This document shows positions 2,434 through 5,665 of a DNA stretch of 31,176 nt, piece after piece. The notes beneath the pieces were generated by a model. That model was not told the origin of the DNA. It made no database searches and saw only the letters and a list, made by a program, of their open reading frames with translations. The translations under genes were made by a program, and so were the position numbers. The stretch's first letter is position 1. Each line of letters begins with the position of its first letter. Source of the stretch: an uncultured archaeon (GTDB lineage: Archaea > Asgardarchaeota > Jordiarchaeia > Jordiarchaeales > Jordiarchaeaceae); NCBI GenBank assembly GCA_964510585.1, contig CAZECW010000181.1, positions 1 through 31,176 on the forward strand. The letters run 5' to 3'.

Positions 2434-2973
2434 TTATTGTGGTGGTGTTTCCTTATTTTTTTGGTATTGTTGTTCTTTTTTCATTTTTTTCTTTAGGGCT
2501 TCTATGGCTCCTCCTGAATTAATGATTTCCATTAGGAAGTCTGGTAGTTTTGTTCCTTGGAGTTCTTGGTTTGTTCTTGTGTTTCTGATTATTCCCTTTT
2601 CTAGTTCGATTTCTATAATGTCTCCTTCCTGGAATATTTTGTGGGCCTCTTTAACTTCTACCAGTGGTAGTCCCAGGTTTATTGCGTTCCTGTAAAATAT
2701 TCTTGCAAAAAAGTCTGCCACAATGGCAGCCACTCCCAATTTCTTTAGAACGTAGGGAGCCTCCTCTCTGCTTGAGCCGCACCCAAAGTTTTTCCCTGCC
2801 ACTATGACGTCTCCGGGTTTAACTTTTTTTGCAAAGTCTGGGTTAACCATTTCCATGGCGTGGCTTGCCATTTTGTCTTCGTCTCTTATGGTGAGATAGG
2901 GCCCAGCAATAATTATGTCAGTATCAATATTGTCTCCAAATTTCCAAACCCTTCCTCTAATTACTGTGGTCAC
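2434..2973 (-). CDS. leuD: 3-isopropylmalate dehydratase/homoaconitase small subunit (LeuD/HacB/DmdB family)
   Basis: GRVWKFGDNIDTDIII, VAGKNFGCGSSREEAP and FARIFYRNAINLGLP motifs. GTG start preceded by GAGGAGG. Confidence 0.92.
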   Translation of the reverse strand: MTTVIRGRVWKFGDNIDTDIIIAGPYLTIRDEDKMASHAMEMVNPDFAKKVKPGDVIVAGKNFGCGSSREEAPYVLKKLGVAAIVADFFARIFYRNAINLGLPLVEVKEAHKIFQEGDIIEIELEKGIIRNTRTNQELQGTKLPDFLMEIINSGGAIEALKKKMKKEQQYQKNKETPPQ

Positions 2974-3016: not shown

Positions 3017-4306
3017 TCAGATTTTTCTTGGATCTGTTATCTCTCCTGTGACTGCTGATGCGGCGACTGTGTAGGGAGATGCCAAGTACACCTTACTTTC
3101 TTTGCTTCCCATTCTTCCAATGAAGTTTCTGTTTGATGAGGATATGCAAACCTCTCCCGGTCCAAGGACACCTGAGCTCCCGCCTATGCAGGGTCCGCAG
3201 TGTGGGTTGCAGATAACGCATCCTGCTTCTAGGAATATGTCAAACAGTCCCTCGTGCATTGCTTGGACGTATACCTCTTTGGAGGCTGGGATAACTATGC
3301 ACCTCACTTCTTTGGGAATCACTCTGCCTTTCAAAATTTTTGCCGCGGCTCTCATATCCTCCATTCTGCCATTGGTGCATGAACCTATAAATGCCTGGTC
3401 TATTTTTATTCCCTCCACCTCTGAGACTGGCACTGCGTTTCCGGGGCTTGGCGGCTTGGCCACTTGTGGCTCAAGTTTTGAAATATCCATTTTGATTACT
3501 TCCTCAAATGTGGCATCAGGATCGTTTCGTACCACTTGGAATTCCTCTTTGGTTCGGGACTTTACCCACTCAACAGTCTTTTCGTCTGGCTCAATAATTC
3601 CTGCCTTGGCTCCCGCCTCTACGGCCATGTTGCTCAAAGTGAATCTCCCATCAATACTCAATTCTCTTACTGCTTCACCAGCATACTCCATGGTTTTGTA
3701 GGTGGCTCCCTCCACCCCAATGTCGCCAATTATCTTGAGAATGATATCTTTACCCATGATGAACTTTGGAATCTTGCCCGAGATGTCAAACTTTATGGTG
3801 GCTGGAACCTTAAACCACAACTCCCCAGTAGCTAGAACCATAGCCATGTCTGTTGAGCCTATGCCTGTACTAAAAGCCCCCAGAGCGCCATAAGTTGTGG
3901 TGTGGGAATCGCTGCCCACAATGAGGTCACCGGGCTTCACGAAACCCTTCTGGGGAAAAACCGCGTGGCAGATTCCCTCACGCATTCCCAACCAGTTCTT
4001 AATATTATATTTTTCCACAAACTCTCTACACTTCTGGTGAATGATGGCCTCGTCAACTTTTCCTGCAGGAATCCAGTGATCTATAAGCGCCACTACTTTG
4101 TCCGCGTCCCACACACGATCCAAGCCTAGCTCATCATAAATCTGGGCGATACGCAGTCCGGTCAACACCATTTACTTCTAGTGTTGATTTCCGAGCATCT
4201 CGTGCACCATTACTCGGTCAATCCTAGCGTTAACTATTTCTCCCGGCTCTACTTTCTTTTTGCCGGAGTGACTAGCTAAAATCTTCTCCGAAATTGTCAT
4301 TCCCAT
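3017..4306 (-). CDS. leuC: 3-isopropylmalate dehydratase/homoaconitase large subunit (LeuC/HacA/DmdA family), split by a predicted 33-nt intron (exon 1 4306-4189, exon 2 4155-3017; 418 aa spliced)
   Basis: The typical N-terminus [36 protein letters not shown] is encoded from ATG 4306, in frame with the body ([50 protein letters not shown]). In-frame TAG and TAA lie between the two parts. The ATG at 4171 used by the ORF track falls inside the insert. Confidence 0.9.
4156..4188 (-). other. Predicted archaeal bulge-helix-bulge (BHB) intron in leuC mRNA, 33 nt
   Basis: The minus strand reads GAGAUGC-UCGG-AAA-UCAACAC-UAGAAGUAAAUG-GUGUUGA-CCGG-ACU-GCGUAUC. This gives a 7-bp inner helix, a 4-bp central helix (UCGG/CCGG), two 3-nt bulges on opposite strands (AAA, ACU) and an outer helix. 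Cutting after the second nt of each bulge removes 33 nt, including both stops, and restores the frame. Confidence 0.85.
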
Positions 4307-4406
4307 AAAACCAAGTCCTCCAAAAGGTCAGCTTAACACAATTCAAACAAATAACGAAGTATAGGGTAATGTAGTTGCGTTGGCTTTTTTAGTTTTCTAT
4401 CACCTT

Positions 4407-5543
4407 CTAGAAACTATTTGTCTCAATTTTTCTTACTATGGCGTCACCAACTTCTGAGGTTGTACTGGGGGTTAAACCAGCATATCTCCCATAGCATAAG
4501 TCTTGTGTTCTCTTCTTCCCTTCAATCAAAACCTTAGCCACAGCGTCCTCAATTATTGAAGCTGCTTTTTCACAGGATACGTCCCTATGCTTTAAAGCCA
4601 GCCATTCAAGCATCATTTTGCCCGATAGAATGGATCCTATGGGATTCGCCTTATTTTGACCCGCAATATCAGGTGCGCTGCCGTGAACCGGCTCAAACAT
4701 CCCGTATTTCTCGCCAACATTTGCGCTGGGAGCCATACCCATTCCTCCAATCAGCACCGACGAGAGATCAGATAATATGTCCCCTTGAAAGTTTGACGTC
4801 ACAACTACATCATAGTGTTCGGGTGCCCTAATCATCCATTGGGTCATAGCGTCCACATATACGTAGTCCCTTTCAACATCTCCATAGTTTTGGGCTATCT
4901 CATCGTAGATTTTTCTGAAGAGTCTGCACCCATCTAGCACGTTACTCTTATCAACACAGGTCACCCGCCTCTTACCGTCACCGGGAGCTCCATTACGTCT
5001 CATGCACAAGTCAAAAGCGTAACGAATAATGCGCTCTGCACCCTTGCGGGTAATTACCCTCACATCTACAGCCAACTCCTCTATGCCTCCCCTATTCAGC
5101 ACACCTCTGATGGGAACATAGAGTCCTTCGGTGTTCTCCCGAACCACTATGAAGTCTACATCCTTAGAACTCTTTCCCAAAATACGGGAATCTATTCCCT
5201 CATATAGTTTAGCTGGTCTCAAATTTGAGTAAAGGTCTAAACCGAACCTCATACCTAAAAGTATGTCCACGCCTGCTAGGATGCCTCCCGGTTTAACAGC
5301 GCCGGGCCACCCTATCGCTCCAAAGAGAATCGCATCTGACTTTTTACACGCATCAAAGGCCTCATCTGGCCACTCTTTACCAGTCTCCGTATAGTACTTG
5401 CCTCCACAAGGGAACTCTATAAATTCAAAGTTAAAACCATTGGCAACATCCCTAGCGGCTTGCAAAACTTTAACGGTTTCCGGAACCACTTCTCTACCGG
5501 CTCCGTCTCCAGGAAGAACTACAACTTTGTACGTTCTAGTCAA
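4407..5543 (-). CDS. Isocitrate/isopropylmalate/tartrate dehydrogenase family protein (LeuB/AksF-like)
   Basis: VVLPGDGAGREV, DAILFGAIG, NLRPAKLY, VVRENTEGLY, VDKSNVL, GDILSD and FEPVHGSAPDIAGQNKANP motifs. Likely TTG start at 5543 with GGAGG 7 nt upstream. It lies directly upstream of leuC-leuD. Confidence 0.9.
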   Translation of the reverse strand: MTRTYKVVVLPGDGAGREVVPETVKVLQAARDVANGFNFEFIEFPCGGKYYTETGKEWPDEAFDACKKSDAILFGAIGWPGAVKPGGILAGVDILLGMRFGLDLYSNLRPAKLYEGIDSRILGKSSKDVDFIVVRENTEGLYVPIRGVLNRGGIEELAVDVRVITRKGAERIIRYAFDLCMRRNGAPGDGKRRVTCVDKSNVLDGCRLFRKIYDEIAQNYGDVERDYVYVDAMTQWMIRAPEHYDVVVTSNFQGDILSDLSSVLIGGMGMAPSANVGEKYGMFEPVHGSAPDIAGQNKANPIGSILSGKMMLEWLALKHRDVSCEKAASIIEDAVAKVLIEGKKRTQDLCYGRYAGLTPSTTSEVGDAIVRKIETNSF

Positions 5544-5665
5544 AAGTGTGCCTCCGCAAAAAAGGTTGAAACACCACCATATAAATATCATGTTCAACCA
5601 GATTTAACTATAAACCAAAAAATTATATCCTAAGTCTTCACGGGAGGGGGTTGAGGCTTACACAT

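Follow-up and report, generated by a model that had tools for sequence, protein, structure and literature searches.

The leuC/hacA-family gene of an uncultured Jordarchaeales archaeon (phylum Asgardarchaeota) raises the question of whether a gene whose frame is closed by two stop codons is broken or spliced. It lies on contig CAZECW010000181.1 of assembly GCA_964510585.1, of which positions 1 to 31,176 were analyzed (31,176 nt, hereafter the window; contig C181 of the 3.78-Mb, 217-contig genome G000). On the minus strand, an open reading frame (ORF) begins with an ATG at 4306-4304 and runs for 42 codons into a TAG at 4180-4178, which is followed by a second in-frame stop, a TAA at 4174-4172. 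The long ORF reported by the gene finder starts at an ATG at 4171 and extends to 3017 on the same strand (384 aa). The evidence argues, with a probability of about 90%, that the gene is not broken and that it is interrupted by a real 33-nt intron of the archaeal tRNA kind, which is spliced.

The interrupted gene and its RNA fold

The proposed intron is part of a motif of the bulge-helix-bulge (BHB) type that is shared between the insert and the codons on both of its sides. The gene and the motif are composed of the following features, in the direction of transcription:

4316..4321, minus strand: Shine-Dalgarno-like GGAGGA, 9 nt upstream of the exon 1 ATG; the motif also stands upstream of the ATG in relatives
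4189..4306, minus strand: exon 1 of the leuC/hacA-family large-subunit gene, 39 codons plus base 1 (A) of codon 40, start ATG 4306-4304
4195..4201, minus strand: outer helix, 5′ strand GAGAUGC, in exon 1 (codons Glu-Met-Leu)
4191..4194, minus strand: central 4-bp helix H, 5′ strand UCGG, in exon 1
4188..4190, minus strand: 5′ bulge AAA, predicted cut between 4189 and 4188
4156..4188, minus strand: predicted BHB intron, 33 nt, phase 1, which holds the in-frame TAG, the in-frame TAA, and ATG 4171, the false start of the gene callers
4162..4187, minus strand: intron hairpin (inner helix h′) UCAACAC/GUGUUGA with a 12-nt loop, 4187-4181 pairing with 4168-4162
4158..4161, minus strand: central helix H, 3′ strand CCGG, in the intron
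4155..4157, minus strand: 3′ bulge ACU, predicted cut between 4156 and 4155
4148..4154, minus strand: outer helix, 3′ strand GCGUAUC, in exon 2 (codons Met-Arg-Ile), 6 of 7 positions paired with the 5′ strand
3017..4155, minus strand: exon 2, UG of codon 40 (Met), 378 codons, and the stop at 3019-3017

An earlier note on this DNA had described these BHB elements and the two stops, and each of them is found in place. Folding of 4210-4140 returns precisely this motif as the minimum free energy structure (−23 kcal/mol, z = −2.9), a stability matched by 3 of 200 shuffles, and the motif is kept in folding contexts of 257 nt and 351 nt with pair probabilities of 0.63 to 0.96. Each bulge lies 3′ of its strand of the 4-bp helix, which is the strand topology of tRNA introns at position 37/38.

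In the proposed mechanism, exon 1 with its last 13 nt and exon 2 with its first 8 nt would pair with each other and with the intron in the pre-mRNA, which would take on the form of helix, 3-nt bulge, 4-bp helix, 3-nt bulge, and hairpin. A two-subunit tRNA-splicing endonuclease (EndA) would cut after the second nucleotide of each bulge. The ligase RtcB would then join the exons as ...CUCGGAA/UGCGUAUC..., making codon 40 (A/UG, Met) and an open frame of 418 codons.

The encoded protein agrees with these cuts. Removal of 4188-4156 eliminates both in-frame stops and leaves an open frame of 418 aa, as the earlier note had derived from the cut rule, and the excised product aligns without a gap to PDB 4nqy/4kp1 and to the family profiles. 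The closest solved structure is the isopropylmalate/citramalate isomerase LeuC of M. jannaschii (PDB 4nqy, E 1e-142), against which the unexcised product shows a single 11-residue gap, located exactly at the insert. Residues 1-39, encoded by exon 1, align with structured residues of the solved LeuC. Even the 429-residue read-through product, with X at the stops, matches the family profiles from end to end (NF001614, 603 bits, cut-off 385; TIGR01343, 595 bits, cut-off 386). The LEU2 equivalog profile is matched with 546 bits, which is below its cut-off of 610; the gene is therefore named as a member of the LeuC/HacA family without choosing between LeuC and HacA. Its membership in the family is supported by the full-length profile match and by the adjoining leuD-type and leuB-type genes.

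The motif by itself is common. A loose BHB pattern matches the genome 55,522 times and a mirror-image decoy 54,739 times, corresponding to a background of about 7e-5 per position and length. When the genome-wide scan that the earlier note had proposed is combined with an ORF-merging filter, it yields no excess over the decoy either (3,583 versus 3,468), and stricter cut-offs do not help; it even misses the relaxed insert in rtcB that is described below. With a decoy that does as well as the real motif, the scan is uninformative, and such introns cannot be found by the motif alone. At the background given above, a BHB that excises exactly the insert is unlikely to arise by chance, and its significance is carried by the comparative and transcript data. 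Two further matches to the pattern in the window (+500 and +30250) look non-coding, and neither Rfam nor ARAGORN finds a match in the window.

Conservation of the insert among relatives

The insert was compared across 15 distinct Jordarchaeales sequences, consisting of nine genomes from two families and six metagenome/Logan contigs; pairing and covariation statistics are taken from an alignment of 14 sequences. An orthologue is present in 9 of the 11 genomes of the order and is interrupted at the same point in all nine, and the insert occupies the same phase-1 site in 15/15 sequences. Its length varies (33, 33, 33, 30, 33, 41, 29, 41, and 35 nt in the genus-like group; 29 nt in family f2) and is not a multiple of three in 11 of the 15, which places the two exons in different frames. 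In-frame stops are found in the four 33-nt introns and in the one 30-nt intron. Nevertheless, a common Gly-Met-Arg junction is reached in all relatives, solely by excision at the BHB cuts. Recoding or readthrough of the stop codons is ruled out by the differing exon frames in these 11 sequences, and an intein or a group I/II intron by the insert being far too short.

The BHB geometry is retained in 15/15 sequences, and its helices covary. In helix H, every cell of the alignment is paired; its changes exchange U-G with U-A and G-C with G-U and include one double change from C-G to U-A, in which a synonymous CTC to CTT in exon 1 is matched by a G to A in the intron. The inner helix h′ is paired in 90.8% of cells, with five of its seven pairs changed on both sides (e.g., UCAAC/GUUGA versus CGCCG/CUGCG). 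Over all helices, 89.9% of cells are paired, compared to 21-38% when the partner strand is slid by one to three columns, and the observed covariation score is reached by none of 500 shuffles. The alignment with relatives that had been proposed as a check thus returns both the shared site and the compensatory stem changes.

The outer helix is less uniform. Its three bulge-adjacent pairs (C-G, G-C, and U-G) are invariant in 14/14 sequences, and the remaining positions pair in some lineages only. The term "canonical", which the earlier note had used, consequently fits the window and is slightly generous for the relatives, in which the outer helix is reliably just 3 bp long. The synonymous sites of GAG-AUG-CUC-GGA are nearly frozen, and the one change that occurs there is the compensated one in helix H.

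This pattern also bears on translational hopping as in phage T4 gene 60, in which the ribosome would take off at GGA (4192-4190) and land at GGA (4159-4157) while the insert stays in the mRNA. In the window, the resemblance to gene 60 is close: a short insert with a stop after the take-off codon and a hairpin separates a GGA from an identical GGA 33 nt downstream. The landing GGA, however, is missing in 5 of the 14 relatives, where the 3′ strand of helix H reads CCGA, CUGA, or CUAA, and covariation follows the helix pairing rather than the codon match. As a joined, insert-less nucleic acid also exists (L058, see below), hopping is the most improbable of the explanations considered and can hardly be credited.

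Both exons evolve as coding sequence. Exon 1 has a conserved protein sequence (82-95% in 15 relatives), and its ratio of nonsynonymous to synonymous differences (pN/pS) is 0.17 between the families (pS 0.70, pN 0.12) and 0.09 within the genus-like group. The corresponding values for exon 2 are 0.21 and 0.08. The coding-like ratio indicates that exon 1 is translated and under purifying selection. These values matter for a further explanation, according to which the gene is split or decayed and gives a separate 42-aa exon 1 peptide and a 384-aa N-terminally truncated protein, or is a pseudogene. Gene callers yield exactly those two products, and in the genus-like group a TTG that could start the second one lies 10 nt upstream of exon 2. 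That TTG, though, belongs to the inner helix, and two family f2 sequences lack any ATG, GTG, or TTG to start exon 2. With both exons under purifying selection across two families, a compensated RNA structure retained in the insert, and the N-terminal 39 residues matching a structured part of the solved LeuC, a split gene or pseudogene is very improbable.

Among the 151 Asgard genomes sampled, the interruption is confined to this clade. About 100 LeuC/HacA matches, found in 81 of the genomes and including paralogues in Jordarchaeales genomes, are uninterrupted at the site, and only the nine Jordarchaeales orthologues are broken there. Most simply, the intron would have been gained once, in the stem of the Jordarchaeales and in one paralogue, and kept since. 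Annotated lengths follow the same division: relatives with at least 72% identity are annotated with 360-390 aa, those of other lineages, with at most 63% identity, with 415-424 aa except for one entry of 386 aa. Among the more distant family members, two entries are irregular in other ways. A LeuC-like orthologue in an Asgard genome of another family (G128:C85:9017-10267, 57% identity) contains one in-frame TAA at unchanged length; its close relatives lack this TAA, which could be a sequencing error, a mark of a pseudogene, or recoding. A 68-aa ENA entry on a 982-nt contig (P0132) has a LeuC-like N-terminus of a more distant lineage that diverges abruptly after ...QQLGVD, which may reflect a further interruption, located elsewhere in the gene, or a frameshift.

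A sequence in the joined form

In the protein search, near-identical LeuC-type proteins have the label Candidatus Jordarchaeaceae/Jordarchaeales and more distant ones that of Freyrarchaeum, and the sequencing runs that carry the DNA of the stretch are hot-spring metagenomes. Four runs were compared, two DNA runs (X1 and X2) and two with the library source METATRANSCRIPTOMIC (X13 and X14). The insert is unchanged in contigs of the two independent DNA runs, X1 (depth 70) and X2. Together with its presence in the 15 sequences, this excludes the assembly error that the earlier note had wished to see checked.

In run X13, by contrast with these DNA runs, a single 5,199-nt contig (depth 128) joins 4189 to 4155, skipping 33 nt without positional ambiguity. 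A sequence that matches this contig in length and in an upstream 30-mer, L058 (SRR28530378, 5,199 nt), was recovered via its leuB protein. Its counterpart L059 (SRR28530379, 3,031 nt) from the sibling run encodes a LeuB identical to that of L058. Upstream of the junction, up to ...GAGATGCTCGGAA, the two show 100% identity over 2,952 nt, and their last 44 nt, from TGCGTATCGCC... to the common contig end, are the same. Where L058 reads GAGATGCTCGGAA/TGCGTATC, L059 carries a 35-nt BHB intron (UCGG AAA ...hairpin... CUGG ACU). The two contigs thus differ only by the presence of the leuC intron. Their strain is about 76% identical in DNA to the window, and 4188-4156 is the only indel larger than 8 nt between the window and L058 in 5.2 kb. 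The predicted junction, CTCGGAA/TGCGTATC, is therefore present letter for letter in a contig, probably though not provably derived from RNA, of a library labelled METATRANSCRIPTOMIC.

Most simply, L058 would be an assembly chiefly of spliced mRNA, and L059 would stem from DNA or unspliced RNA of that strain; we infer that L058 derives from RNA. Jordarchaeales are transcriptionally active in hot-spring metatranscriptomes from Tengchong (PMC11094006). That SRR28530378 and SRR28530379 belong to this study, which gives no run accessions, is only plausible.

A number of observations pull in the other direction. The stretch is not found in any run on record as RNA, and a small share of it occurs in only two runs, labelled METATRANSCRIPTOMIC/WGS. 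The library of run X13, rated "RNA? (probably DNA)" by the run classification, includes DNA, as its contigs of up to 85 kb show. L058 bridges the promoter region of a divergent gene pair, which is unusual for pure mRNA. On the side of the motif, the BHB is out-competed in one folding context of 171 nt, and the exon side is relaxed in most relatives, with an outer helix of only three invariant base pairs. On the side of the enzymes, the gene of RtcB is itself interrupted in this genus. Apart from these observations, run X14 yields no joined contig, just one from a different strain that bears the intron, plus a 41-nt unitig of high depth. The spliced junction CAYGARATGCTNGGNATGCGNAT, when sought in JGI metagenome contigs and GTDB genomes, gives only chance matches outside leuC, and a protein search with exon 1 finds only ORFs that read into the intron, and not the spliced N-terminus.

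The library composition and the divergent gene pair on L058 would fit a further explanation, in which the insert is real and the joined contig is DNA. It would represent a strain-level allele that lost the insert precisely, for instance by recombination with reverse-transcribed spliced mRNA, and splicing would then be inferred from the comparative data only. For cbf5, close relatives are documented to have gained and lost the intron (PMC2738675). Against such an allele stand the complete identity of the L058 and L059 flanks and the declared metatranscriptomic source of the library. Furthermore, an intron-less leuC with this junction occurs in none of the 15 DNA sequences, the GTDB species representatives, or the JGI contigs. 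Even if the contig were DNA, a precise loss at the BHB cut sites would itself be a footprint of splicing. A DNA allele is thus unlikely, if less so than hopping or a split gene. The preferred reading, removal of the intron from a biosynthetic mRNA by the tRNA-splicing machinery as the earlier note had proposed, is supported by the conserved and compensated structure, the frame-shifting lengths, the selection on exon 1, and the joined contig taken together.

Candidate splicing enzymes, similar inserts, and known systems

The candidate cutting enzymes are encoded elsewhere in the genome, and the neighbors of leuC form an operon-like row with it:

2434..2973, minus strand: leuD/hacB-type small-subunit gene, downstream in the operon-like row (TIGR02087, 214 bits)
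4407..5597, minus strand: isopropylmalate/homoisocitrate dehydrogenase-family (leuB-type) gene, upstream (profile and protein search)
G000:C157:27006-27584, minus strand: catalytic-type EndA-family gene with Tyr/His/Lys catalytic residues, which aligns to the C-terminal unit of two-unit EndA
G000:C126:19612-20208, plus strand: structural-type EndA-family gene without the His, which lines up with the N-terminal unit and with beta-subunit models

The true start of the leuB-type gene is probably near 5543, because the database proteins have 378 aa. In the profile search, the two EndA-family genes score 108 and 80 bits and RtcB 578 bits. The division into a catalytic and a structural type suggests a hetero-oligomeric (heterotetrameric) EndA of broad specificity. 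An enzyme of this kind goes with the cbf5 intron of Crenarchaeota (Yoshinari 2006, cited in PMC12397907). Moreover, the lineage is known for the heaviest known load of tRNA introns, many of them non-canonical (PMC11291895; bioRxiv 10.64898/2026.10.13.758758). We infer that EndA and RtcB are the acting enzymes.

Two further genes of the same genome harbor similar inserts. In rtcB, a 30-nt insert with an in-frame TGA lies between Asp and Ala of LPD/AHQGYGFPIGG (G000:C58:3762-3791, equal to L037:1561-1590, plus strand). Its 4-bp helix is CCCG/CGGG, and its bulges, ACA/AAG, lie where the standard cuts would restore the motif; the flanking helices are weak. The rtcB insert (29-30 nt) is found in all six genomes of the genus and is absent from four genomes of the sister family. 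In cbf5, a clean 31-nt BHB intron lies inside GTL/DPKVTG (G000:C18:27688-27718, minus strand; L060/L061), with helix CACU/AGUG, bulges AGA/AAA, and the 7-bp hairpin GCUUCCU/AGGAGGC. On balance, it appears somewhat probable that Jordarchaeales splice a whole set of mRNAs, including those of leuC, rtcB, and cbf5, via the EndA/RtcB tRNA machinery. The suggestion of the earlier note that the intron gates the leucine/lysine pathway is unsupported, and the like inserts in rtcB and cbf5 make a pathway-specific role unnecessary.

Among the closest known counterparts of the leuC intron are the non-canonical tRNA introns of Jordiarchaeia/Freyarchaeia and Atabeyarchaeia, which share the organisms, the BHB geometry, similar sizes, and the presumed enzymes (PMC11291895; bioRxiv 10.64898/2026.10.13.758758). 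The difference is that the leuC host is an mRNA, so that half the motif consists of codons. Protein-coding introns are unmentioned in both of these sources. The known case in an mRNA is the crenarchaeal cbf5 pre-mRNA intron of Desulfurococcales and Sulfolobales (Watanabe 2002, Yoshinari 2006, Yokobori 2009 = PMC2738675). Like it, the leuC intron is a short BHB intron in a coding region, and the tRNA-splicing endonuclease and ligase are considered responsible for removing both; in each case, the host lineage has a hetero-oligomeric EndA and many non-canonical tRNA introns, and presence varies by lineage. Unlike the crenarchaeal host gene, leuC encodes a dehydratase of the leucine/lysine pathway and not an RNA-modification enzyme, its phylum is Asgardarchaeota, and its intron is one of several in a genome whose own cbf5 carries a BHB intron.

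Splicing of HAC1/XBP1 proceeds by IRE1 cleavage and, in metazoa, by ligation through RtcB. By analogy only, leuC would share with HAC1/XBP1 a short, spliceosome-independent mRNA intron, a protein endonuclease acting at a local stem-loop, RtcB-type ligation, and a change of frame (general knowledge and PMC13149111). The IRE1 nuclease and its recognition motif are unrelated, however, and regulation by stress is known for HAC1/XBP1 splicing.

In the literature searched, cbf5 in some Crenarchaeota has since 2002 been the only archaeal protein-coding family documented with a BHB intron, and a 2025 review of EndA still cites the cbf5 case alone. No paper on BHB introns in Asgard protein-coding genes was found in the literature searched. 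The proposed mechanism is the known one of the crenarchaeal cbf5 intron; what is new is the gene, the phylum, and the multi-gene setting. The finding consists of a metabolic Asgard gene with a BHB intron conserved across an order and of a sequence from an environmental library that matches the spliced product.

The first consequence concerns annotation. All database entries for leuC in the clade carry a wrong annotation, which splits the gene into a truncated protein of 378-390 aa and a separate "hypothetical protein" of 42-67 aa that reads exon 1 into the intron; the earlier note had anticipated such a false start. In the genus-like group, the annotators' TTG start of a 382-aa "protein" sits in the 3′ strand of the intron hairpin (GUUGA; window 4162-4171), and the error is uniform because the G-rich helix strand before this TTG mimics a ribosome-binding site. 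Gene callers and metabolic reconstructions of these genomes therefore under-call intact genes.

The second consequence concerns the organisms. Codons are recruited to build half of the splicing motif, with their synonymous sites frozen or compensated, and coupled transcription-translation raises the question of how unspliced messages are kept from the ribosome. If the set of mRNAs is indeed spliced as proposed, the RNA ligase must splice its own message, which would create a built-in feedback loop on splicing capacity. This Asgard lineage would then be the first prokaryote with routine, multi-gene mRNA splicing that depends on protein enzymes. Taken with rtcB and cbf5, the leuC case suggests that this relative of the eukaryotes may splice mRNAs routinely.

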